Positions 3,764 to 55,320 are shown, counted from the stretch's first letter. The stretch: 64,000 nt of DNA from an uncultured Mycoplasmatota bacterium (GCA_900542735.1 UQOS01000003.1:6821-70820), one strand, 5' to 3'. Notes: generated from the letters alone by a model not told the origin. Translations and numbers: made by a program.

Positions 3764-4525
3764 ATGGAAATAGATAATATAAAAAATAATTTAATCGTTG
3801 AAATAGAAAAATTAGTAAAAATTATTAAATATGATTTATATAAAATAGTCCATATAGAAGAAACAGGAACCATATCACTATTCGTAAGAAAAGGAGAATT
3901 TTATTTCCCTTTAGATGCCTTCAAGGTATTAGAAATATTTAGAAAAATACCTGGTTTTGGAATAAATAAAAATCATAAAACATATACTGAAAATAATATG
4001 ATATTAAATGATAATACTTTTATGACTTATATACAACATGTATTTCTAAAAGGATTAACTGCTGAAGAATATTTCAAGGAGATACTTTTACATGAAACAC
4101 TACATTTTTGTGGTAGTGGTGGAGGAAGTGCATTAAGAGAAGGAATCAATGAATTGAAAACAAGGCAGTTAGCTCAAAAGTATAACCTTTTAACTTCTGC
4201 TTGTGGCTATCCTAAGGAAACTAAAATTGCATATGAATTAGAAGAATTATTTGGAGAAGATATTATAAATAAAATAGCATTTTCTAAAAATCGTTCAGAA
4301 TTAATAGAAATATTAACTTCTCTATCTAAAGAAGCAATGGAATTTTTCTTAGAATTGGATAAAATAATGGAAAAGGAATTTGAAGATAAATATTATAGAT
4401 ACAAATTTCCTGGTATAATGGGTCCATTTAAAAAGGCAAACAAATATAATTCTATAGATTATTCACAAGCATATGAGCTTATAGAAAAGTACAAAGATTA
4501 TTCTGAAAATCACAAAATAAAATAA
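3764..4525 (+). CDS. Hypothetical protein with HExxH zinc-metallopeptidase-like motif
   Basis: ORF with HETLH at ~aa 113 followed by FCGSGGGS; RBS AGGTGAG 4 nt before ATG 3764 (track used GTG 3755). No family recognised. Confidence 0.4.
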   Translation: MEIDNIKNNLIVEIEKLVKIIKYDLYKIVHIEETGTISLFVRKGEFYFPLDAFKVLEIFRKIPGFGINKNHKTYTENNMILNDNTFMTYIQHVFLKGLTAEEYFKEILLHETLHFCGSGGGSALREGINELKTRQLAQKYNLLTSACGYPKETKIAYELEELFGEDIINKIAFSKNRSELIEILTSLSKEAMEFFLELDKIMEKEFEDKYYRYKFPGIMGPFKKANKYNSIDYSQAYELIEKYKDYSENHKIK

Positions 4526-4693
4526 ATAATTGGGAAGAGTTACCTTCTTATTTAATTAAAAATGATAAAGCTATTAAATTAGAAAATACAGATATAATAT
4601 ATACTATTAATAGTAAAAATGAGTAGGAAAACTATTCATTTTTTCTTATCTCTAAAAATAATATGTTATAATCATAATAGGAATGGTGATGAT

Positions 4694-5763: not shown

Positions 5764-6828
5764 ATGTTAGAAAGACTAGAAGTAATTGAAAAAAGATATG
5801 ATGAAATTCAAAAAGAATTATCTAATCCTGATGTTTACAGTAACATGAATAAAATGAAATCTCTATCAAAAGAAGCAAGTGACTTAGAAGAAACTGTAAA
5901 TGCTTATCATGAGTATAAAAAGATTTTATCAGGAATAGAAGATACCAAAGAAATGATAAAAGATCCTGAAATGGGTGAGTTAGCAAAAGAAGAATTAGTA
6001 AACTTGGAATCTGAGAAAACTAAATTAGAAGAAAAAATAGAAGTTTTATTAATTCCTAAAGATCCTAACGATAGTAAAAATGTTATTGTGGAAATTCGTG
6101 GAGCAGCTGGTGGAGATGAAGCCAATATCTTTGCTGGTGATTTATATAGAATGTATTCAAGATATGCTGAAAAACAAGGATTTAAAATTGAATTAATTGA
6201 TGCTGAAGAAGGCGCTTCTGGGGGATTTTCTCAAATAGAATTCATGGTAAAAGGAGAAGGCGCTTATTCAAAACTAAAATATGAAAGTGGTTCTCATCGT
6301 GTTCAAAGAGTCCCAGAAACAGAATCACAAGGAAGAATTCAAACCTCAACTGCAACAGTATTAGTAATGCCAGAAGCAGAAGATGTAAACATTGAAATCA
6401 ATCCAAGTGACTTAAGAATTGATATATATCGTTCTTCAGGTTGTGGTGGACAAGGAGTAAATACTACCGATTCAGCAGTAAGAATTACCCATTTACCAAC
6501 CAATACAGTAGTTACTTGTCAAAATGAAAGAAGTCAAATTCAAAACAAGGAGCAAGCAATGAAAGTATTAAAAGCACGTCTTTATGAACAAGAACTTCAA
6601 AAACAAGAAGAAGCATTAGGTAATGAAAGAAGAAATAAAATTGGTACTGGTGATAGAGCAGAAAAAATTAGAACATATAACTACCCACAAAACAGAGTAA
6701 CAGACCATCGCATTGGTTATACCACAAACAATTTAGATAGAATTATGAATGGTGCACTTGATGAGGTAATTGAAGCTTTAATTACCGAAGATCAAAAAAG
6801 AAAGTTATCAGTAGAAAACAATGACTAA
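5764..6828 (+). CDS. prfA: Peptide chain release factor 1
   Basis: 354 aa; GGQ motif ([23 protein letters not shown]); RF-1 family PxT-region context; RBS AAGGAGGA. Confidence 0.95.
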
Positions 6829-7054
6829 AATTTCTACAATCTGTCTAAAATGTGGTAAGGTTCAAACAGTAGAAAACATGGAAGAAATAATGAACGATTA
6901 TTATATCGTTCTAGATAAGAAAATGTTTTGCCCAAATTGTCAGAGAAAAACTGATTTTATAGCGACAAAAGATATAGAAAATCTAAAAGAAAATATAGAG
7001 AAAAATCCATCTGAGGCATTAGATAGTTATATTATAAAGTTATTAAAGAAATAG
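6821..7054 (+). CDS. Small zinc-ribbon protein (CxxC...CPNC) encoded between prfA and prmC
   Basis: 77 aa; two CxxC pairs (CLKCGK...CPNCQRK). ATGA overlap with the prfA stop suggests translational coupling within the prfA-prmC operon. Confidence 0.4.
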
Positions 7055-7063
7055 GATTATAAC

Positions 7064-7894
7064 ATGAAAGTAGAAGAATTAATTATTTATGGAAAAAAGT
7101 ACCTTCACTCTCAACACGCTAAGATGTTGTTAGCAGATTTATTACAAGTAAATCCCTTAGAACTACTAAATCATTTAGAAGAAGAAGTACAAGTAGATAT
7201 TATCAATGAATATAAAAAAAGAGTAGAAGCCTTAAAAGAAAAAAAACCAATACAATATGTAATTGGTAATGTTAATTTTTATGGAAATAAGTTTTTAGTA
7301 AACGAAAATGTTTTAATTCCAAGATTTGAAACAGAAGAATTAATAGAAAATACATTATTATATATTGATAAAATATTTCTTGATAAAAATTTAAAAGTAA
7401 TTGATTTAGGGACTGGGTCTGGCTGTATTGGTATCACTTTAAAACTTAAAAATCCATCTTTTGATGTTACTCTTTTAGATATTAGTAAAGAGGCATTAGA
7501 AGTAGCAAAACAAAATGCTAGTAGTTTAAATGCCCAAGTAAAACTATGCCAAAATGATATGCTCGAAAATCTAGAAGAAAAATACGATATTATAATTTCT
7601 AATCCACCCTATATTAAAGAAAATGAGCCAATTGAGGAAATCGTAAAAAATAATGAACCCCATTTGGCTTTATATGCTGGAATAGATGGCTTAGACTATT
7701 ATCGTAAAATCCTAAAAGAAGCAAAATATCGTGTAAATAATAGATTTTTGCTTGCTTTTGAAATAGGAGAAACTCAAAAAGATGCCATTATAGAATTAGC
7801 AAAATTAAGTTTTCCACAGGCTAAAATTGATGCTAAAAAGGATATGCAAAACCGTGATAGAATGATATTTGTTTACCAAAATGAGGCTAATTAA
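7064..7894 (+). CDS. prmC: Release factor glutamine N5-methyltransferase
   Basis: 276 aa; SAM motif (VIDLGTGSGCIG) and NPPY catalytic motif (ISNPPYI); follows prfA as in most bacteria. Confidence 0.9.
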   Translation: MKVEELIIYGKKYLHSQHAKMLLADLLQVNPLELLNHLEEEVQVDIINEYKKRVEALKEKKPIQYVIGNVNFYGNKFLVNENVLIPRFETEELIENTLLYIDKIFLDKNLKVIDLGTGSGCIGITLKLKNPSFDVTLLDISKEALEVAKQNASSLNAQVKLCQNDMLENLEEKYDIIISNPPYIKENEPIEEIVKNNEPHLALYAGIDGLDYYRKILKEAKYRVNNRFLLAFEIGETQKDAIIELAKLSFPQAKIDAKKDMQNRDRMIFVYQNEAN

Positions 7895-7900
7895 GCCTCT

Positions 7901-8833
7901 TTATTTTGTTTGAATTCCATATCTAGCCCCTTTTAAAAGATATAAAAAGTAATAAGCTTCCGTTAATAAATTATCAAAGAAGAGTGGTTCTACTATAAAA
8001 TAATACTTATTATTTAAAATACCATTAATGATAACGCGTAAGAATTTGATAAAATCTTCTACATATTGAATTGTGCTTTGATTTAATTTAAGTTGAGAAT
8101 CAGGAGTAATATTCATTTCCTTATATAAAGTCATTTGCTTCATAAATATTTTTCTAAAATTATCGGAATTGGTAAGAATAGTAGTTAAACTAGGATCACA
8201 AAGTCCAATAATAAGTTGAGAAATAGTTTTCATAGAGTCACAGTACCAATATTCATAATTAACGATAAAAGTAGGATCGGCACTGTTTTTAGCAGCAAGT
8301 CTTAATAAATCATTATAATAAAAATTAATTTCTTTAATCACAAAGGTAAAGAAAGTAGGGTAAGTATAAGAAAATAATTTATTCTCTTTTAATAAATCTA
8401 AAATTTCCTTACAAAAATCAATAAAATTTTTACTTAAAGCAATAGCATTTTCATTAATATCAGTAATTTCTGCTAGTTCTTCTTCTGTATAATTAAACTT
8501 GCTACCAGCTTCTATATTCATTTCAGCAATCGTAAGATTTGTGTTTATATCAACATTAAATAATTTCTCAGTAACTAATTCACAATTTAAAGTATAATCA
8601 GTCACAAAAGAATTACTATTTAAAATACTCTCTGGTAAATTTTTATTAGCAAGTTTAATCACTCTTTCTCCAAGTTCTTCACATCTAATTCCAAAGTCAT
8701 TCGCAATATCGATATAATACTTATTATTTTCTAAAAAAGAAAGTTGAATATTTAAACAAAATTCTCTCATAGTCCTTAAATAAAATAGATTGTCAATTAA
8801 AGATTGTATCATAAATAAAGTATCATTAATCAT
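7901..8833 (-). CDS. Hypothetical protein (possibly DUF2935-like two-repeat helical protein)
   Basis: 310-aa minus-strand ORF convergent with prmC; no catalytic motifs recognised. Confidence 0.4.
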   Translation of the reverse strand: MINDTLFMIQSLIDNLFYLRTMREFCLNIQLSFLENNKYYIDIANDFGIRCEELGERVIKLANKNLPESILNSNSFVTDYTLNCELVTEKLFNVDINTNLTIAEMNIEAGSKFNYTEEELAEITDINENAIALSKNFIDFCKEILDLLKENKLFSYTYPTFFTFVIKEINFYYNDLLRLAAKNSADPTFIVNYEYWYCDSMKTISQLIIGLCDPSLTTILTNSDNFRKIFMKQMTLYKEMNITPDSQLKLNQSTIQYVEDFIKFLRVIINGILNNKYYFIVEPLFFDNLLTEAYYFLYLLKGARYGIQTK

Positions 8834-15474: not shown

Positions 15475-15525
15475 TTTTGTATAAAAATTTTCATTTTGGT
15501 AACACTCTTAATGAGGTGAAAAAAA

Positions 15526-16145
15526 TGAAAAAGAAATTAGTTTTGAAACCATTTGTAATTCCAACACTGTATTTAACATTTTCTCTAGCTATTATGATAG
15601 GTTTATTTTTATCTATTGATGTTACCCAAGAAAAAGAAAATTTAACCTATGTTAGTAGTGCTATTCTAGATGAATATGTACCAGTTATAAATACAGTAGA
15701 AAAGGTAAGAAGACCTTATACAGATGGAAATGTCGTAATTGCTAATAATTACTATGACTACCAATCATCAGAAGAAGAACAACAGTCATCTATTCTTTAC
15801 CATGAAAATACTTATATTCAAAACACAGGTATTAACTACAAATCTGATAATAGTTTTGATGTAATAAGTATCATGAAAGGTGAAGTAATAGAAGTAGAAG
15901 AGAAAGAACTCCTTGGAAAAAGTGTAACAATAAGACATGAAAACAATATAATAAGTGTTTATCAAAGTCTAGGTGAAACAAATGTCAAAAAAGGAGATAA
16001 GGTAGAAGCAGGTCAAATTATTGGTAAAAGTGGAAAATGTGATTTAATTACAGATTCCGTAAACAATTTACATTTTGAATTATATGTAAATGGAACAATA
16101 GCAGACCCTGAAAACCATTATGATAAAACTGTAGGAGAGTTTTAA
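15526..16145 (+). CDS. Membrane-anchored M23/LytM-domain protein with degenerate zinc site (SpoIIQ-like), immediately upstream of spoIIID
   Basis: ATG 15526 after RBS GAGGTGA; single TM; C-terminal LytM-like domain (GEVIEVEE...SVTIRHENN...GQIIGKSG...NLHFELYVNG). HxH is degenerate (NLHFE). Position upstream of spoIIID matches the spoIIQ locus in other endospore formers. Confidence 0.55.
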
Positions 16146-16184
16146 TCTAGCATAAAGGAAAAAGTCACCAATATAATTTATTAG

Positions 16185-16451
16185 GTGATGAAAGTGAATA
16201 AACAAATAATAAAAAGGGTAGAAGAAGAAGCAGACTATATGATTGAAACAAAAGAAACAATTAGAAAAGTTGCTTCTAAATTTAGAGTTAGTAAAAGCAC
16301 TGTTCATAAAGATATCAAAGAAAGATTAAAGGAGTTAGATTTTACGAAATTTAAAATAATTCAAGATATTTTTTCTGAACACATAAGGACAAGACATATA
16401 TTAGGAGGAGAGTCCACTAGAATAAAATATTTAAGAGAAAGAAAGAGCTAG
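16185..16451 (+). CDS. spoIIID: Stage III sporulation protein D (sigmaE/K-dependent transcriptional regulator)
   Basis: IKRVEEEADYMIETKETIRKVASKFRVSKSTVHKDIKERL closely matches the B. subtilis SpoIIID HTH region. Exact start uncertain (ATG 16185/16188 or GTG 16194 after AGGTGA). Confidence 0.85.
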   Translation: MMKVNKQIIKRVEEEADYMIETKETIRKVASKFRVSKSTVHKDIKERLKELDFTKFKIIQDIFSEHIRTRHILGGESTRIKYLRERKS

Positions 16452-17517: not shown

Positions 17518-18609
17518 ATGTTTGAAAGTGAAATGATAACTTCTTTCAAAATGGTTTTTATTACTTTTATTGTTAGTGCCTTAATTATGCCTATTATGAA
17601 AAAAATAGCACATCATATAGGGGCCATTGATATTCCAAGACAAGATGAAGGTAATAGACATATTCATAAAAAACCAATTCCTAAATTAGGTGGTGTTGGT
17701 ATCTTTTTAGCCTTTTTATTTGGTTATATGTTATTTGGCCAACACAGTATTAAAATGAATGCTATTTTAATAGGAAGTTTTATTATTATTTTAACAGGAA
17801 TGATAGATGATATTAATGATTTAAGGGCATCACGCCAATTAATAGCTCAATTTTTAGCTGCATCAGTTATTGTATTTTATGGTGGTATTGTTTTAACAGA
17901 TATAACGGCGTTTGGACTTCATATTGAATTTGGTATTTTTTCAAAATTAATGACGATATTATTTATAATTGGTTGTATTAATATTATCAATTTTACAGAT
18001 GGTTTAGATGGCTTAAGTGGTGGAGTAACTTCTATTTTTTATATTACTACTGCGATTATTTGTTTTTATCAAGGAAGACTTGGAACTTTGGAAATGACTT
18101 TAACTTTATTAATGTTAGGTGCAACACTTGGTTTCTTAGTTCATAATTTTTATCCAGCTAAAATCTTTGCCGGACAGTGCAGTATGTTTATGGGATTTAT
18201 GATTTCCATTATTTGTTTATTAGGTTTTAAAGGGACAGCTCTTACATCACTATTTGTACCACTAGCAATTCTAGGATTACCAATTCTAGATACTCTATTT
18301 GCAATTATAAGAAGAACATTAAAGGGTCAACCAATATTTAGTGCTGATAAATCACATATCCATCATCAAATATTAGGTATGAATTTTTCACACAGAGCAA
18401 CTGTTTTAATTGTTTATTTAATTAATATACTATTTGCACTCACTTCAATTTTCTATGTGTTAAAGGACCCATTGGCTGCCAAAGTAATTTATGTTATTCT
18501 CACAGTAATTGTAGTATGGTTTGTTTGTTATACTAATATTATTACTGAAAAAAAACCACCAAAGCTAAAAGATATAAAAAATAAAATACATAAAAGGAAA
18601 AAGAAGTAG
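17518..18609 (+). CDS. tagO: Undecaprenyl-phosphate GlcNAc-1-phosphate transferase (WecA/TagO, MraY-like polyprenyl-phosphate sugar-phosphate transferase)
   Basis: 363 aa, ~10 TM; MraY/WecA motifs (DDINDL, NFTDGLDGL; HHQ motif IHHQILG); RBS GAGGTGGAAG. Confidence 0.8.
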   Translation: MFESEMITSFKMVFITFIVSALIMPIMKKIAHHIGAIDIPRQDEGNRHIHKKPIPKLGGVGIFLAFLFGYMLFGQHSIKMNAILIGSFIIILTGMIDDINDLRASRQLIAQFLAASVIVFYGGIVLTDITAFGLHIEFGIFSKLMTILFIIGCINIINFTDGLDGLSGGVTSIFYITTAIICFYQGRLGTLEMTLTLLMLGATLGFLVHNFYPAKIFAGQCSMFMGFMISIICLLGFKGTALTSLFVPLAILGLPILDTLFAIIRRTLKGQPIFSADKSHIHHQILGMNFSHRATVLIVYLINILFALTSIFYVLKDPLAAKVIYVILTVIVVWFVCYTNIITEKKPPKLKDIKNKIHKRKKK

Positions 18610-18647
18610 TACCCAATATACTACTTTTTTCTAATTAGGAGGAGTCT

Positions 18648-19403
18648 ATGTTAAATTTTATTATTTATGAAGATGAAAAAAAGTTTAGAGAAAAATATAT
18701 CTCAGTTATTTTAAGATTATTAGGTAGTAAAAAAATTGCTTATAAGATCATAGAGTATGATAAGTATGAATCTGGTATTATTACGAATCTAAAAAAACTT
18801 ATTGGAAAGAAAATATTTATTTTTGATATTGAAGTACCAGATAAGTCAGGACTAGATTTAGCACGTGAAATAAGAAATAGTGGTGATTGGAGTAGTCCTA
18901 TGATTGTAGTAACAACGCATGAACACTTAAAAAATGCCACTTTTACTAGTAGAATGTTAATGCTAGACTTTATTTCTAAGTTTTATAATTGTGAAGAAAA
19001 TTTAAAATCAGCTTTACTAGTAGCTTTAGAAATTGTCGATAATCAACATTCTTTGAATTTTCAATACAATGGTGAATTAGTACAAATACCATTTGATGAT
19101 ATTTTATTTATCGAAAAGAATGTAGATGATTTATATTCAACTGTAGTTACAAGGCATGATAGATATATTATCAAACAAACAATTAGTAAAATTGAAAAGG
19201 ACTTAAGTCAAGATGAAAGATTCTTTAAAACACACAGAAGTTGTATTGTAAATGTAGATAAGATTACAAGTGTGGAATTAAGAGAATGCATCATTCATTT
19301 TGGACATACTGAGATAATATCATTACTATCTAGAGAAAAGAAAAATGAATTAAAAGCATTATTAAGTAAAAAAGGTGTAGTAATAAAGGATGGTGTAAGA
19401 TGA
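18648..19403 (+). CDS. LytTR-family response regulator (AgrA-like)
   Basis: N-terminal receiver (FIFDIEVPDKSGLDLAREIR) and C-terminal LytTR domain (FFKTHRSCIVNVDKI); stop overlaps the kinase start (ATGA). Confidence 0.85.
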   Translation: MLNFIIYEDEKKFREKYISVILRLLGSKKIAYKIIEYDKYESGIITNLKKLIGKKIFIFDIEVPDKSGLDLAREIRNSGDWSSPMIVVTTHEHLKNATFTSRMLMLDFISKFYNCEENLKSALLVALEIVDNQHSLNFQYNGELVQIPFDDILFIEKNVDDLYSTVVTRHDRYIIKQTISKIEKDLSQDERFFKTHRSCIVNVDKITSVELRECIIHFGHTEIISLLSREKKNELKALLSKKGVVIKDGVR

Positions 19404-20719
19404 AGTTTTTAGAGTTATTCATAGATTCTGCTATTATGTGGACTACATTTTATTTAATTGGAAGAATATTATTTGAAGAAACAAAAAAAACCAATTACAT
19501 TAAATTAGTTCCTATGATTATGCTTTTTTCATACATATTAGCACACATAAATTATGTGAATTCAGAAATATTAAATGGTATTATAAAAATTATATGTGTG
19601 TATAGTTTGTATTGTGCATTTTATAAAATTATATTTAAAAAAGAACTATCTAAAGTTCTAGTAGCATCATTAATATTATATTTATGTCTATGTGCATCAG
19701 AAGTAGTAATGGTAATAATTGCAGGAATTGTTTTGGAAATAATGGGTAAACCTATGTCAATTATGAAAAATAGTATTGTTATGAATTTTCTTATAGCTTT
19801 GTTTGAATATATAATAATTTTTAAATTAAAAGATAAATTGACATCTATCGTTAAAGATAATAATTTAGGTAAAAAAAGTGGTATCATAGTTATTTTTATT
19901 GTATTAATTACATTGGCATTACTAAAATTTAAAATGCCATTATCAAAGTGGAGTATTGATACAGAATTTATAATTACTATGATAATATTATTATCGTTTT
20001 GTATAGTTGGTATATTTATGATAAAGCAAAACTCAGATATTCAAAAAACAACATCAAAATACCAAAAATTAGTAGACTATTCTGATATAACTAATGACCT
20101 ATTGGAAGATTATAGAGTTATTTCTCATGAACAGAAAAACCAATTGTTAGTAATTAGAAGTTTGTTGGATGATAATTCTCCTCAAGAATTAGTAGACTAC
20201 GTAGATGGATTATTAGATAAAAAAGTAGGTTTTAAATATGAATGGATTGGAGATTTGACTCATCTGCCACTATCAGGATTAAAAGGATTAATTAATTACA
20301 AGTTAATTGAGGCAAATTCATTAAAAATTGATACAAACATTTCTATAAGTAAAGACATTGATAAATTAAAATTAAACAAATTATCATCAAAACAAAAAGA
20401 CGAATTATATAGTATAATAGGTGTATACTTAGATAATGCCATTCAAGCAGCAAAAGAAAGTAATAAGAAAGAAGTTAGTTTGGAAATCTATAAAGAAAAT
20501 GAAAAAGTAGTTATCGTAATAGCTAATACCTATGATGGAAAGATAGATTTTGAAAAATTAGATAACTATGGTTATACAACAAAAGGCAAAAATCATGGAG
20601 TAGGCTTGCACTTAGTTAAAAAAATAATTGAGAATGAAGTAATATATTCTCAATCACGTAGTTTATTTGAAGACTATTATGTACAGAAGCTAATTATTGA
20701 TTTATCAGGAATAAAATAA
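19400..20719 (+). CDS. AgrC-like (HPK10) membrane sensor histidine kinase
   Basis: ~6-7 N-terminal TM helices; H-box region ISHEQKNQLLVIRSLL; GHKL ATPase N/G boxes (LDNAIQAAKE; GYTTKGKNHGVGLHLVKKI). Partner of the upstream LytTR regulator. Confidence 0.8.
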   Translation: MKFLELFIDSAIMWTTFYLIGRILFEETKKTNYIKLVPMIMLFSYILAHINYVNSEILNGIIKIICVYSLYCAFYKIIFKKELSKVLVASLILYLCLCASEVVMVIIAGIVLEIMGKPMSIMKNSIVMNFLIALFEYIIIFKLKDKLTSIVKDNNLGKKSGIIVIFIVLITLALLKFKMPLSKWSIDTEFIITMIILLSFCIVGIFMIKQNSDIQKTTSKYQKLVDYSDITNDLLEDYRVISHEQKNQLLVIRSLLDDNSPQELVDYVDGLLDKKVGFKYEWIGDLTHLPLSGLKGLINYKLIEANSLKIDTNISISKDIDKLKLNKLSSKQKDELYSIIGVYLDNAIQAAKESNKKEVSLEIYKENEKVVIVIANTYDGKIDFEKLDNYGYTTKGKNHGVGLHLVKKIIENEVIYSQSRSLFEDYYVQKLIIDLSGIK

Positions 20720-20720
20720 A

Positions 20721-20745
20721 AAAGCTACCTAACGGTAGTCTTTTT
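20721..20745. terminator. Bidirectional hairpin shared by the convergent kinase gene and agrD
   Basis: AGCTACC-taac-GGTAG(t)CT flanked by A-run on one side and T-run on the other; lies between the kinase stop (20719) and the agrD stop (20744). Confidence 0.5.
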
Positions 20746-20869
20746 ATCTTTCAATCATCTCTTTAGACATTTCAGGTTCATCTATAACTAAACATACACA
20801 AGCTGAAGTTGCAGCACCAGCAGCTAAGATACCAAGTCCAGAAAGAACCATAGCGAATAATTTTTTCAT
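20744..20869 (-). CDS. agrD: AgrD-like autoinducing-peptide precursor (41 aa)
   Basis: Not in ORF track (too short). Minus-strand ATG 20869 with RBS GGGGAA 7 nt upstream. Product MKKLFAMVLSGLGILAAGAATSACVCLVIDEPEMSKEMIER has an N-terminal amphipathic leader, central Cys-containing core (ACVCLVI) and an acidic D-E-P-E tail like AgrD recognition tails (S. aureus DEVEVPKEL). It sits 19 nt downstream of agrB. Confidence 0.75.
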   Translation of the reverse strand: MKKLFAMVLSGLGILAAGAATSACVCLVIDEPEMSKEMIER

Positions 20870-20888
20870 ACATTTTCCCCTTTCACTT

Positions 20889-21494
20889 CTATTTACTAAA
20901 AACATACCCCTCATAATTCTTATATGGTAATTTAAACACCCTATAAGTAAGAGGATGTATTAGTACAGCTTCAAGTAACATACTACACATAATAACATTT
21001 CTTAAAAACATACTATTTGTGTAGAAGTAAAGTAATATATATATAACTGCAACGGTAATTGTTAATAATTTAAATTTAATTCTTCTGTTTTTTCTAACAA
21101 GAGGTCTTTTTTTGGTATCAGCAGGAGCATATAATAAAAAACATATAAATGTAACTGCTAAAACAAAATATTGAATAACTAATGGCATGTTGAGATGCAA
21201 ACAAACATAAGGAAGCCCTATAAATAATAATGAAGAAGCAATCCAGCACATCCAACTTTTAGTAGCATGAATTCCAAATGCAAATGACCTAAGCCCATTA
21301 AAAAATAATAATAATATTACTGCTTCTTTAAATAGTCCTAACAATAAAGAAACAAGTAAAATAACAACAACTTTAGTAAGAGATAAGTATATAGCTTCTA
21401 AACCATACCTGATTTCATCAAGCTTAGAACTATCGTAATCAGGATAAATATCTGTTACTAATTGTAAAGAATGATTGATAATAAATTGTTTCAT
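20889..21494 (-). CDS. agrB: AgrB-family AIP-processing membrane cysteine peptidase
   Basis: Strong similarity to S. aureus AgrB: FGIHATKSWMCWIASSLLF (catalytic His/Cys spacing) and YAPADTKKRPLVRKNRR (compare YAPAATKKKPIPVR). Start taken at ATG 21494 (MKQFII...) with RBS GGTGA 7 nt upstream; track start 21536 is less likely. Confidence 0.9.
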   Translation of the reverse strand: MKQFIINHSLQLVTDIYPDYDSSKLDEIRYGLEAIYLSLTKVVVILLVSLLLGLFKEAVILLLFFNGLRSFAFGIHATKSWMCWIASSLLFIGLPYVCLHLNMPLVIQYFVLAVTFICFLLYAPADTKKRPLVRKNRRIKFKLLTITVAVIYILLYFYTNSMFLRNVIMCSMLLEAVLIHPLTYRVFKLPYKNYEGYVFSK

Positions 21495-21616
21495 TTTTGT
21501 ATCACCATATCTTTCAATGACACTATAACACAACAAAATATCAGAAATTTCGATATTATATTCAAACGTTTATTTTTGTAGCTAGATACTAAAAAAGTTA
21601 ACTAATTACAAACTAC

Positions 21617-21644
21617 TTTTACCAAAAACATACAAAAATGAACA
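21617..21644 (+). promoter_or_regulatory. Conserved csp 5'-leader element, copy 1 (ttttaccaaaaacatacaaaaatgaaca), downstream of extended -10 TGCTACAAT (21680-21688 lies 3' of it)
   Basis: Near-identical element recurs upstream of the second csp gene (22020-22047); cold-box-like conserved leader. Confidence 0.45.
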
Positions 21645-21757
21645 ATTCACACAAAAAAATTTAAAATTACCACATCTTTTGCTACAATGAATTTGCGCAA
21701 TTAGTGATATCACACTAGCAGTAAGCAGTAAAGAAATACAGAAGGTGAGGTGGCAGT

Positions 21758-21976
21758 GTGAAAGGAAGAGTAAAATGGTTCAACAATGAAAAAGGATATG
21801 GCTTTATCGAATATACAGATAAAGAAGATATCTTTGTTCATTATTCTGCAATCAGACAAGAAGGCTATAAGACATTAGAAGAAGGCCAGATTGTAGAATT
21901 CAAATTACTTGAGACTGAAAAAGGCTTTCAAGCTCTTGACGTCGTAGTTTCAAAAGAACTATCAGCTACCAAATAA
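21758..21976 (+). CDS. cspA: Cold-shock protein (CspA family)
   Basis: GTG start after RBS AGGTGAGGTGG; [19 protein letters not shown]1 motif and [10 protein letters not shown]2. Confidence 0.9.
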
Positions 21977-22019
21977 TGGTAGCTTTTCTAATGGTAATTT
22001 TGTTAACTATTAGTTAAAA

Positions 22020-22130: not shown

Positions 22131-22349
22131 ATGTTAGGAAAAGTAAAATGGTTCAATAACGAAAAAGGATATGGTTTTATAATTGGAGAAAATAATCAAG
22201 ATGTTATGGTACATTATTCTTGTATCGAACAAAGTGGTTATAAAACCTTACATGAGAACCAATTAGTTGAATATGAACCAGTTAAAACGAAAAAAGGTTT
22301 ACAAGCACAAAAAGTAAAACCGGTAAAAGATTTAGAAACTATGAGATAA
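22131..22349 (+). CDS. Cold-shock protein (CspA family), tandem paralog
   Basis: [17 protein letters not shown]...VHYSCI; 72 aa. Confidence 0.9.
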   Translation: MLGKVKWFNNEKGYGFIIGENNQDVMVHYSCIEQSGYKTLHENQLVEYEPVKTKKGLQAQKVKPVKDLETMR

Positions 22350-23040: not shown

Positions 23041-23517
23041 ATGGAAATATTTTTGAAAGATTTAAAACTAGAAAGAGTTAATTTTTTTGATGAAGAAAAG
23101 ATAAATTATATAGAAGGATTATTAGATGATGAATTAATTAAAAAGTATTTAGGCTATTTAAAAGATGGAATATCAATTAGTAAAAATATAGGGTATTTAA
23201 ATTCACATTATGTTGTAAAACGTGGTTCAAACAATGTAGGTTATCTATATCTTAGTCCACCATTTATCAAAGATAAAAGGACTTCATCAGAAATAAGATA
23301 TGCTATAGACTCATTATATAGACAAAGTGGTTTAGGTAATCTATTAGTAAAGGAAATTAGTGATTATATTCTAGAAAACGAAAATATCGATTCTCTAGTT
23401 GCCATTATTCAAAAACAGAATTTAATCTCCAAACATATAGTAGAAAATAATGGTTACATACAAGATGGAGAAGATATAGATGGTTTGATTTTTGAAAAGA
23501 GTAGTTTTAGGCGATAA
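23041..23517 (+). CDS. GNAT-family N-acetyltransferase (putative)
   Basis: 158 aa; R/QxxGxG-like acetyl-CoA loop (YRQSGLGNLLVKEI). Confidence 0.5.
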   Translation: MEIFLKDLKLERVNFFDEEKINYIEGLLDDELIKKYLGYLKDGISISKNIGYLNSHYVVKRGSNNVGYLYLSPPFIKDKRTSSEIRYAIDSLYRQSGLGNLLVKEISDYILENENIDSLVAIIQKQNLISKHIVENNGYIQDGEDIDGLIFEKSSFRR

Positions 23518-50542: not shown

Positions 50543-51064
50543 ATGACAGTAAGACCACTAAGCATAAATCAAAATCAGTGTTGTGAGTTTCCCACTAATG
50601 CTATGGAAGAATTATCAGTAATGGCAGGTGGTTATATCATAACGCCACTAGGAGAAATTATTTTAGTATATGATAAAGAAAATCACTGTAATGTATTTTC
50701 AAAATATATAAATGAATATTTAGAAAGTAAAGAAAATATTCAATATGATACTTTATCAGCTACTAAAATATTATGTGAATTAGGGTGCTGTGTATATGCT
50801 GGAATTAGATTAGAATATATTAAAAATAAATTAGGAAATCTTGATAAAACACTAGTCACATTAACGATTCCTAATAATTCTGAAAATCTAACAGATATTC
50901 AAAAAACAATTTGTACAAAATTAATAGAATCTAATAAATCACGAATAAGTGGTAGAAAAATTTTTGATATTCAATATGGAAGTTTTCCAGATACTGTCTA
51001 TACAGAAGAGGAAGTAACAGAAATTTTAAAAAATACCAATGAAAAAAGGAACACCATCAATTAG
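50543..51064 (+). CDS. Hypothetical protein
   Basis: 173-aa ORF starting 2 nt after whiA stop; Cys-containing but no known motif. Confidence 0.3.
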
Positions 51065-51642
51065 TGTTTCTTTTCTATAATTTTATCAACAATTCCATAT
51101 TCTAAAGCTTCCTTACTATCCATAAAATTATCTCTTTCTGTATCTTTTTCGATAGTATCTAATTTTTGATTTGTGTTCTTAGCAAGAATTTCATTTAATT
51201 TATGTCTTAATTTTAAAATGTGTTCTGCCGCTATTTTAATTTCTGTTGCTTGACCCTGTGCTCCTCCTAATGGTTGATGAATCATAACCTCGGCATTAGG
51301 AAGAATATAGCGTTTCTTTTCCTCGCCAGAAGATAGTAAAAATGCAGCCATACTAGCAGCCATACCTAAACAAATAGTAGATACGCTACTCTTAACAAAA
51401 TTCATAGTATCATAAATAGCCATTCCTGCAGTAACAGAACCACCTGGTGAATTAATATATAAACTAATATCATCATGATTTAAGGAATCCAAATACAAAA
51501 GTTGTGCAACCACACTATTAGCAAGCATATCATCAATCTCACCACTTAAAAGAATAATTCTATTTTTAAGTAGTCTAGAAAAAATATCATAACTTCTTTC
51601 TCCATTATTTTCTTTATCTACAACCATTGGCACTAAACTCAT
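51061..51642 (-). CDS. clpP: ATP-dependent Clp protease proteolytic subunit
   Basis: Start ATG 51642 ([25 protein letters not shown]) with RBS GGGTGA; catalytic Ser in GMAASMAAF; His/Asp context conserved. Confidence 0.9.
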
Positions 51643-51745
51643 AATTATCACCCATAATTATAATAGTGTAAATAAGCTCATTTTATACATTTATTAGTTA
51701 GACAAAATGTGATACAATGAAACTGTAAAAATAGAAGGTGATTTG

Positions 51746-54636: not shown

Positions 54637-55320
54637 TCAGATACTTTTATTATGGAAAAATTTACTAGAACAGATATAAATATAATCCTCTAATTCTGGA
54701 AACATTTCCTTAAACTCTATTAATTTATCACTATCTACTTCATCAAATAGGAAAAATTTATCATCTTTATCAATTTTTAAATGATTATTCATTTCTTCTA
54801 GATAAGGTTTACGAAAAGAGGGATTAGAAATTGTATAAAACTGCATTCCATCAACTTCATTTTCAAAATTAGTACCAAGTTTAGCATTTATTTGATAATT
54901 CTTTAAATTGGAAAGCATATCTTGAGAACTACTTTGAATATAAATATTTGGGTAATCTCTTACCAAATAAGTAAGATACTGTGAAAATAATAAATTATCA
55001 CTACCATAATCAGAAAGATTAAAAATTAATACTTTGTTACTATCTTTAAACAATTCAAGAGCTTCTTTTAAAGAAATCACCTGATGCCTTTTGACTCTAT
55101 TTCCTAAATTATATTTTTTAATATCTTCTAAAGTAAGTTTCTTAATTTCTTTATTAAAAATATTATCATTATGATAAATAACGATTTCCTTATCTTTCGT
55201 AAAATTAAGATTTAACATAACGCCATCAACCGTTTTATTATGAAGACTTAAAAGCAAAGAATCTCTACTATTAATGGGTGCATATTTAGAAGAAAGTCCA
55301 TTTTTAATAATAAATTTCAT
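54637..55320 (-). CDS. Glycerophosphodiester phosphodiesterase-like protein (catalytic residues apparently degenerate)
   Basis: 227 aa; GDPD-like N-terminal pattern (INSRDSLLLSLHNKTVDGVMLNLNFTKDKEIVIYHND) but lacking the usual HR...E..D catalytic set. Confidence 0.4.
   Translation of the reverse strand: MKFIIKNGLSSKYAPINSRDSLLLSLHNKTVDGVMLNLNFTKDKEIVIYHNDNIFNKEIKKLTLEDIKKYNLGNRVKRHQVISLKEALELFKDSNKVLIFNLSDYGSDNLLFSQYLTYLVRDYPNIYIQSSSQDMLSNLKNYQINAKLGTNFENEVDGMQFYTISNPSFRKPYLEEMNNHLKIDKDDKFFLFDEVDSDKLIEFKEMFPELEDYIYICSSKFFHNKSI

Follow-up and report, generated by a model that had tools for sequence, protein, structure and literature searches.

A convergent agr-type quorum-sensing locus with a predicted six-residue signal ring in an uncultured human-gut member of the Bacilli

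The agr-type quorum-sensing locus described here lies in a 64,000-nt stretch of DNA, referred to below as the window, from an uncultured bacterium recorded as a member of the Mycoplasmatota (GCA_900542735.1, UQOS01000003.1:6821-70820). Its closest characterised counterpart is the agr system of Clostridium acetobutylicum, whose agrBD and agrCA genes lie on one strand. Six-residue rings and a division into agrBD and agrCA operons are both already described. Mass spectrometry detected the autoinducing peptide (AIP) of C. acetobutylicum as a six-membered macrocycle that lacks an N-terminal extension, and rearrangement of tail-less clostridial peptides to an all-amide ring has been described (PMC8251862). 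The AgrD precursor of this AIP reads ...GKCVLVTLYEPKMPEELL (PMC10301443, supplement). Six-residue rings are recognised in reviews, where the C. acetobutylicum genes are given in the order agrBD agrCA and a convergent order is not mentioned (PMC12312760). The window locus very probably encodes a complete and functional AIP quorum-sensing system, to judge from its sequence, with a convergent gene layout, a cognate kinase, and a six-residue ring. That it is of the agr type and contains a true AgrD had been proposed in an earlier reading of the sequence alone (the sequence-only reading), and this was borne out by protein family scores, by synteny across the clade, by a C-x5-DEP frame shared by the AgrD homologues, and by co-variation of the AgrD core with the kinase sensor domain within one species.

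The window locus and that of C. acetobutylicum have in common the precursor frame C-x5-[Y/D]-E-P-x-M-P and the placement of the signal-production and sensing genes in separate transcription units. In both, the signal is a six-residue ring without a tail, verified by mass spectrometry for the C. acetobutylicum AIP (cyclo-CVLVTL) and predicted here. No RNAIII is known for either, and no RNAIII match was found at the window locus. However, agrBD in the window converges on a regulator gene followed by a kinase gene, and the AgrD leader is hydrophobic and signal-peptide-like, whereas the C. acetobutylicum leader is hydrophilic and amphipathic (MNLKEQLNKVNDKF...). The LanM-like gene that is associated with six-ring systems in Clostridium is not adjacent to the window locus, and the hosts belong to different groups, the Clostridia in the one case and uncultured Bacilli in the other.

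The agr system of Staphylococcus aureus uses the same four protein families, with a catalytic His and Cys in AgrB, an AgrC-type kinase, and a LytTR regulator. In staphylococcal agr, the AgrD core and the kinase sensor are hypervariable together, and the within-species variation at the window locus resembles that among S. aureus groups I to IV. The two differ in that S. aureus has one co-directional operon with a divergent RNAIII, a ring of five residues plus a tail, a hypervariable AgrB with contiguous variable segments, and AgrA-type 9+12+9 boxes, whereas the window has two converging units, a predicted ring of six residues that is probably tail-less, an AgrB that is 96-99% conserved with the variable segments lying apart, and none of these boxes. 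The AgrD leader of Clostridium perfringens is hydrophobic and ends in ...ATSAC directly before the ring Cys. Like the system predicted here, the C. perfringens AgrBD-VirS/VirR system has a tail-less ring signal (the 5R peptide) and sensor genes outside the agrBD operon, but its ring has five residues (CLWFT; PMC12312760) and its receptor genes are at a distant locus. Clostridioides difficile agr2 is likewise a complete four-gene agr locus in a gut Firmicute, but agrB2D2C2A2 is co-directional, with a Ser nucleophile and a five-residue ring, and a polar agrA2 insertion is predicted to act on all four of its genes. Genome mining with PF04647 and TIGR04223 is established practice and would detect the window locus, and gut AIPs have already been covered by a separate large-scale survey of human-microbiome genomes.

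Gene identities, layout, and clade synteny

All four genes were confirmed at the positions proposed earlier, with agrB and agrD on the minus strand and the genes for the LytTR regulator and the AgrC-like kinase on the plus strand. The features of the locus are as follows.

18603-18630, plus strand: weak AT-rich hairpin followed by a U-run, between the upstream glycosyltransferase gene and the regulator gene
18648-19403, plus strand: LytTR response regulator, 251 aa, with receiver and LytTR domains; the AgrA-like output of the system
19400-20719, plus strand: AgrC-like histidine kinase, 439 aa, with a HATPase_c_5 domain; its start overlaps the regulator stop
20724-20739, both strands: bidirectional intrinsic terminator made of an A-run, a GCTACC/GGTAG hairpin, and a T-run
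20744-20869, minus strand: agrD, 41-aa AIP precursor (TIGR04223), with the C-x5-DEP frame
20889-21494, minus strand: agrB, 201-aa membrane endopeptidase/cyclase (Pfam AgrB), with its ATG at 21494
21522-21530, minus strand: probable agrBD promoter, extended -10 element TGTTATAGT, which begins 36 nt upstream of the agrB ATG
21597-21647, minus strand: three blocks spaced about 20-21 bp, a candidate array for regulator binding that lies between the promoters of agrB and csp

The regulator gene shares its last 4 nt (ATGA) with the start of the kinase gene, and the agrB stop codon (20889-20891) is separated from agrD, on the same strand, by a gap of 19 nt. Only 24 nt lie between the kinase stop and the agrD stop, and they are occupied by the 20724-20739 element, which was called a terminator on both strands by the terminator scan and which folded at -11.5 kcal/mol (z -6.7) on the plus strand and -14.3 kcal/mol (z -5.3) on the minus strand relative to shuffled sequences. 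The arrangement is therefore not that of a co-directional agrBDCA operon, because agrBD on the minus strand and the regulator-kinase pair on the plus strand converge on this terminator. The claim that the regulator and kinase genes, in that order, face agrBD through a common hairpin was thus upheld by the coordinates, the terminator scan, the folding, and the synteny in related genomes.

Pfam AgrB (PF04647) matched the agrB product at 117.6 bits (cut-off 23, E 5.5e-34), and the catalytic pair, His76 (codon 21267-21269) and Cys83 (codon 21246-21248), was unchanged together with the YAPADTKKRPL motif across 12 AgrB homologues of 61-78% identity, in agreement with the earlier call of a clear AgrB. 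In an alignment with S. aureus AgrB, they correspond to H77, C84, and YAPAATKKKP. Neither a single-sequence nor a profile search found solved structures related to AgrB. In public gene calls, AgrB often starts at TTG 21536, giving a form of 214 or 215 aa, which is probably a start-codon error. Because the conserved -10 element at 21522-21530 lies downstream of this TTG, the true start should be ATG 21494, and a GGTGAT Shine-Dalgarno sequence sits six nt upstream of that ATG.

The regulator matched the Pfam LytTR domain at 64.6 bits and Response_reg at 29.2 bits, just below the cut-off of 30.2, with the phospho-acceptor candidate Asp60 (codon 18825-18827) present. Among solved structures, ComE matched the regulator over its full length, with Asp60 aligned to the ComE phospho-acceptor region, and AgrA structures matched it by the LytTR domain. 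This LytTR domain diverges fast across the clade. The AgrC-like (HPK10) kinase matched HATPase_c_5 at 49.6 bits (Pfam), and S. aureus AgrC was the only relative found for it in the Protein Data Bank; in the alignment, His243 and the next Asn fall on the AgrC His box (H-x-x-x-N). His243 is encoded at 20126-20128, the N-box LDNAI lies at aa 344, and the G-box is at 20585-20608. The polytopic membrane sensor comprises aa 1-210 (19400-20029), with at least five strongly hydrophobic segments in aa 57-208. As a separate observation, regulator residue 65 (18840-18842), in the PDKSG turn after Asp60, is Asp in the window and Gly in all 13 other strains of the species with a complete regulator gene; for 12 of the 13, this comes from the list of differences and from the 99-100% regulator identities.

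Loci identical to that of the window come from human-gut metagenomes, and the host is an uncultured low-GC human-gut member of the Bacilli (window GC content, 27.4%). An AgrB-profile scan of species-representative genomes gave 80 loci, nearly all from uncultured Bacilli labelled Bacilli, Tenericutes, Mollicutes, or 'Clostridium sp. CAG'. Among relatives with names, the closest are metagenome-assembled genomes of 'Candidatus Alloscybalousia' (Bacilli incertae sedis), the name now used for the relevant genus, 'Candidatus Scybalousia' being a homonym. Wherever a locus had enough DNA downstream, and down to an AgrB identity of 37%, agrB and agrD were followed by the kinase and regulator genes on the opposite strand, and the gap between agrD and the kinase gene (median, 30 nt) usually held a symmetric hairpin. 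On the agrB side, csp-hpf-secA was found in at least 94% of the related loci, and on the other side a Glycos_transf_4 gene abutted the regulator gene in 26 of 55. This clade-wide synteny means that the convergent order is an old and stable trait of the clade and not a local rearrangement. A limited literature search found no earlier description of convergent agr loci and no paper linking quorum sensing with this clade.

Extra sensing genes were present in some relatives. For example, locus L024 has two tandem kinases (5815-8418), L019, L020, and L022 encode another kinase some 2 kb further on, past the regulator, and L039 carries an additional LytTR regulator (3824-4576) on the upstream side of agrB. 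Next to the window locus are two tandem cold-shock genes (21758-21976 and 22131-22349), the first of them followed by a terminator-like hairpin (21964-21984), and one to three csp copies occupy this position in related genomes. A match to the Rfam cspA-thermoregulator inside the first csp coding sequence was sub-threshold (37 versus 78 bits). Between hpf and secA, a 158-aa ORF of the GNAT acetyltransferase type (23041-23517) is also found in L089-L091, L093, and L094, is absent in L001-L004, and is replaced by an ORF of only 49 aa in L087, L088, L095, and L096, a presence/absence polymorphism within the otherwise 98-100% identical DNA of one species. The window as a whole has an extreme coding-strand bias, with nearly all ORFs of at least 120 aa on the plus strand. 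On the minus strand, ORFs that clearly overlap no other are limited to agrB (with agrD), 7901-8833, 51061-51651, and 54637-55320. No tRNA genes occur in the 64 kb. M23 peptidase and SpoIIID-family genes (Pfam) at about 15477-16450, upstream of mreB, hint at sporulation genes in a lineage entered as Tenericutes or Mollicutes in several public records.

Co-variation of AgrD core and kinase sensor

Comparison of strains was based on loci encoding an AgrB 96-99% identical to that of the window, 12 of which had a complete kinase gene. AgrDs that cluster with the window AgrD at 90% identity or more differ nearly only in the five residues after the Cys, with the cores CVCLVI, CLCLVL, CLCLVI, CLCFVL, CLCFVI, CLLIVL, CVFLVL, and CLILVL. 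Two further cores from the loci, CLFLML and CVLIVL, and one from a metagenome, CLFIVL, bring the number of ring sequences in the species to at least 11. The last of these was the one new core obtained, on a single contig, when metagenomes were scanned with a degenerate agrD DNA pattern.

The kinase gene changed along with the core. The DNA flanking it was 98-100% identical to the window in all strains compared, but over 19401-20000 the nucleotide identity of strains with other cores dropped to 51-64% for the two allele types that diverge most and to 61-100% for a third. Identity was regained over most of the kinase domain (87-97%), with a second dip to 69-85% at 20301-20400 (kinase residues ~301-334), between the His-box region and the ATP-binding domain. 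The eight loci with the CVCLVI core had sensors 98-100% identical to that of the window, compared to 40% for CLFLML, 42% for CVLIVL (two independent loci), and 70% for CLCFVL. In these other-core loci, the kinase domains were 87-92%, the regulators 99-100%, and AgrB 96-99% identical to their counterparts in the window. The two independent CVLIVL loci had kinases identical at 447 of 451 positions. The sensor divergence within the species (37-39%) exceeds that between the window and other species (40-56%).

The 12 loci with a complete kinase gene thus carry four cores, each with its own sensor allele. The expectation that the neighbouring kinase and regulator are the cognate ones is strongly supported by this co-variation of AgrD core and sensor domain within one species: the kinase is very probably the cognate receptor, and the alleles can be equated with agr specificity groups (pherotypes). 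About 750 bp of conserved kinase domain lie between the variable sensor (19400-20030) and the variable core (20783-20797), and it is the convergent layout that keeps these two variable segments apart.

The AgrD precursor and its ring

The agrD product, MKKLFAMVLSGLGILAAGAATSACVCLVIDEPEMSKEMIER, consists of a leader (aa 1-23), the predicted ring CVCLVI (aa 24-29; 20783-20800), and the tail DEPEMSKEMIER (aa 30-41). An AAAGGGG Shine-Dalgarno sequence precedes the gene within the 19-nt gap that follows agrB. Mechanical ORF calling, and many public gene callers, give instead a 56-aa form that starts at an upstream ATG overlapping agrB (extension 20870-20914), and the positions of the Shine-Dalgarno sequences suggest that this start is probably wrong. 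The gene had been described as unannotated, which holds for the ORF track first examined but not for public data, where the exact 41-aa AgrD is a called gene on 73 contigs (NCBI, JGI, ENA, Logan); a close allele is labelled 'cyclic lactone autoinducer peptide' by JGI. In the family search that had been proposed for the four proteins, AgrB, LytTR, and HATPase_c_5 were recovered, and AgrD was recovered by TIGR04223 (NCBIfam; 20.4 bits versus a cut-off of 19) but not by the staphylococcal family PF05931. TIGR04223 was matched by 40 of 45 AgrD family members of the clade. By these scores, the protein is an AgrD in the broad sense, outside the staphylococcal subfamily.

AgrD sequences were extracted from 77 loci and aligned on the DEP motif, of which E and P were invariant and D was present in 76. 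A Cys stood exactly six residues before this D in 74 of the 77; of the three exceptions, one had Ser and one Thr at that position, each able in principle to act as the nucleophile, and the third had its Cys one residue further off. The five residues after the Cys were hydrophobic and hypervariable, with 73 distinct cores among the 77 sequences. The spacing through the clade is therefore C-x5 and not the C-x4 of canonical AIPs with five-residue rings. Since this C-x5-DEP frame is that of C. acetobutylicum AgrD (C-x5-[YD]EPxMP), the signal is predicted to be cyclo-CVCLVI, and by this analogy a six-residue ring released by cleavage between Ile29 and Asp30 is likely.

Of the two ring options named in the sequence-only reading, the six-membered CVCLVI accordingly remains the likely one given the frame in 74 of 77 homologues, whereas the four-residue CLVI does not. 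A canonical five-residue ring (C-V-C-L-V), or a smaller ring formed through Cys26 (CLVI or CLVID), has in its favour that five-residue macrocycles are by far the commonest in characterised systems (PMC12312760, table) and that the window AgrD does contain a second Cys. However, a second Cys was found in only 3 of the 77 AgrDs (two at -4 and one at -5), and other alleles within the species have F, L, or I in place of Cys26. Because the second Cys varies even within the species and is absent from most relatives, the CLVI ring in particular is unlikely. Moreover, the sole characterised AgrD with the C-x5-[YD]EP frame makes a six-residue ring, and the residue at -1 to DEP is always hydrophobic and differs between alleles (I or L), as expected for a part of the signal. 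Taken together, these points make the five-residue and smaller rings decidedly improbable. A more radical alternative holds that the small ORF arose by chance or has decayed, and that the locus no longer signals. The ORF is short, falls under the Pfam AgrD threshold, and is absent from default ORF lists, but a homologous ORF with a Shine-Dalgarno sequence occupies the same position in 77 loci with E-P invariant and C and D near-invariant, its product passes TIGR04223, and all four genes are intact in every strain examined. We regard this alternative as the least credible of those considered here, and the six-residue ring from a functional AgrD as the preferred reading.

The leader had been described as amphipathic, which was not obvious. 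Read from the alignment, it is hydrophobic and signal-peptide-like, with MKK, a hydrophobic stretch, and A-[ST]-x-[GA] immediately before the Cys. It resembles a secretory signal peptide in having small residues at -3 and -1, which points to a cleavage site just ahead of Cys24; the peptide would then have no N-terminal tail. A lipobox typically has Leu at -3 before the Cys. A lipoprotein reading of the leader was considered and rejected on inspection of the alignment, where position -3 is Ser or Thr in 69 of the 77 homologues.

Expression, proposed circuit, and implications

On the agrBD side, the extended -10 sequence TGnTATAnT was invariant in 13 aligned agrB upstream regions of near relatives, at -31 to -41 from agrB, which makes the copy at 21522-21530 a probable agrBD promoter element. 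At a fixed distance of about 72 nt from it lies the block TTAGTTAAC (21597-21605), whose GTTAA is invariant in near relatives, and two further blocks conserved in near relatives, TTTGGTAAA (21618-21626) and AATTGTTCAT (21638-21647), stand 21 and 41 nt upstream of the GTTAA block. S. aureus-type LytTR 9-bp repeats with a 12-bp spacer, for which a scan of 21537-21757 had been suggested, were absent from that stretch; what is there is this degenerate three-block element with a period of about 21 bp. No strict match to the S. aureus AgrA consensus pair (WMMGTTNRK, 11-14 nt, WMMGTTNRK) was found in the 64 kb, and the best relaxed pair upstream of agrB was at chance level, 82% of shuffles being equally good. 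A repeat search of 21495-21760 found no direct-repeat family, only weak inverted repeats. With 9 occurrences against 18 expected, the motif TWRGTTAAY shows no enrichment in the window and is therefore of no use for finding further targets.

A clearer signal came from the clade. In 76 agrB upstream regions, direct 9-mers matching at 8 or more of 9 positions formed 56 pairs at a spacing of 21 bp, compared to 2.7 +/- 2.5 in shuffles. Exactly 21-bp repeats occurred in 22 of the 76 loci; every other distance tried between 15 and 29 bp gave 0-5 loci, and among 60 control regions taken from within the kinase gene there were 3 with such repeats. The repeated sequence differs by lineage (TTTTAGAC, AAAGGTA, TGTCATTAA, GCACGAAATGCA, and others), which fits the fast divergence of the LytTR domain. 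In lineages with clear 21-bp repeats, for example L046 and L084, the repeats abut a promoter pointing toward agrB. Since a 21-bp period is the classical 9+12 LytTR spacing, autoinduction of agrBD is likely for the clade. In the window, the corresponding candidate regulator-binding array (21597-21647) can be assigned only tentatively, because its blocks are degenerate and unusually far from the -10 element. Separately, a tandem 10-bp repeat, (A)AATTTCGAC AAATTTCGC, was present toward the csp side in 16 of the 76 csp-agrB intergenic regions, where it gave a second autocorrelation peak (41 pairs versus 2.2 expected); it lies at about -230 to -216 from agrB in L032, L045, L053, L056, and L057 and at about -143 to -127 in L060 and L080.

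On the other side of the locus, only 38 nt separate the glycosyltransferase (Glycos_transf_4) gene from the regulator gene. The hairpin at 18603-18630 folded at -10.2 kcal/mol with a z of -1.9, the promoter scan found no promoter in the 38-nt gap, and several relatives have no space for a terminator or promoter ahead of the regulator gene. The short gap, the negative scan, and the lack of room in relatives lead us to propose that the regulator and kinase are probably expressed by read-through from the mreB and glycosyltransferase genes, independently of the signal.

The array might instead serve mainly the divergent csp gene (21758-21976) as an effector in the manner of RNAIII/P3, with agrBD driven by its strong extended -10 element and little autoinduced. 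The positions would suit this, since the blocks are about 50-95 nt upstream of the predicted csp transcription start and about 85-130 nt from the agrB start (positions inferred), and a divergent csp adjoins agrB in 75 of 77 loci. However, hpf (67 of 69) and secA (44 of 47) are equally conserved beyond csp, so that general synteny explains the adjacency, and the clear 21-bp repeats of L046 and L084 abut a promoter directed to agrB. Synteny thus lends no support to csp as a dedicated effector, a candidate that we set aside and keep only as an unlikely rival. It might also be argued that agrBD is an orphan signal pair, as in C. perfringens or C. difficile agr1, beside an unrelated two-component system. 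The two pairs do lie on opposite strands as separate transcription units, there are known cases of orphan agrBD loci (PMC12312760), and canonical AgrA boxes were not found. Against this stand the adjacency of agrBD with the kinase and regulator genes in all informative related loci across deep divergence, the change of sensor allele exactly with the AgrD core in 12 loci of otherwise near-identical DNA, and the fact that the only structural relatives of the kinase are AgrC. An orphan pair is, in our judgement, very improbable.

Several observations nevertheless weigh against a complete agr system with a six-residue ring and an autoinduced agrBD. The AgrD scored under the threshold of Pfam AgrD (PF05931; 12.3 versus 22.7 bits), and the regulator and kinase scored 47.9 versus 400 on the NCBIfam AgrA equivalog (NF046049) and 52.8 versus 500 on that for AgrC (NF046015); being so far below the equivalog cut-offs, they are family relatives and not orthologues of staphylococcal AgrA and AgrC. 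AgrB is conserved here (96-99% identity to the window in the strains compared), unlike the hypervariable AgrB of S. aureus. The six-residue ring size leans on analogy with a single characterised system. Finally, the window array is degenerate, with 6 of 9 matches at a spacing of 20-21 bp, and stands some 70 nt upstream of the -10 element, a greater distance than for classical AgrA boxes, and nearer to the csp promoter.

The complete agr-type system that we prefer would work as follows. The agrB and agrD genes would be transcribed from their own minus-strand promoter. AgrB, through His76 and Cys83, would recognise the invariant DEPxM[PS]K tail of AgrD, cut between Ile29 and Asp30, and form a thioester between Cys24 and the new C-terminus, giving the six-residue ring CVCLVI with a neutral monoisotopic mass of 630.323 Da (hand arithmetic). 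Cleavage of the leader directly before Cys24 would leave a peptide without an N-terminal tail, which could rearrange to an all-amide ring. Outside the cell, the peptide would be sensed by the polytopic AgrC-like sensor, and the kinase would phosphorylate Asp60 of the regulator, which most likely binds the array of ~21-bp period between agrB and csp and raises agrBD transcription (autoinduction). The regulator and kinase would probably be constitutive, by read-through from the mreB and glycosyltransferase genes, and insulated from agrBD by the shared terminator. A further-reaching version of this scheme seems doubtful to us: that one gut species speaks many signal dialects, with its at least 11 ring sequences and with highly diverged sensors for the three alternative rings for which a whole kinase was compared, that the tail-less hexapeptide, freed by a signal-peptidase-type cut just before the Cys, rearranges spontaneously (S-to-N acyl shift) to an all-amide ring, that the alleles cross-inhibit and so drive strain exclusion, and that the regulator may also drive csp as a protein effector replacing RNAIII.

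The known agr paradigm is unchanged by these results, which hold no conceptual surprise. What distinguishes the system is its clade-wide convergent layout with a shared bidirectional terminator, its six-residue ring frame, its signal-peptide-like leader, and its rich set of alleles within one species. The convergent, terminator-insulated layout would keep a constitutive sensing side apart from the inducible production of the signal. Most work on agr systems has been done in pathogens, and very few gut-commensal signals have been characterised; for an uncultured gut lineage, the locus yields concrete predictions that can be synthesised, namely, cyclo-CVCLVI and at least 10 allelic variants. The matched peptide/receptor pairs make up a natural allelic series for the study of receptor specificity in systems with six-residue rings. 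If the alleles interfere with one another as the staphylococcal groups do, this could explain strain exclusion in gut communities. The locus is thus an entry point into peptide signalling, and possibly into strain interference, in uncultured gut bacteria.

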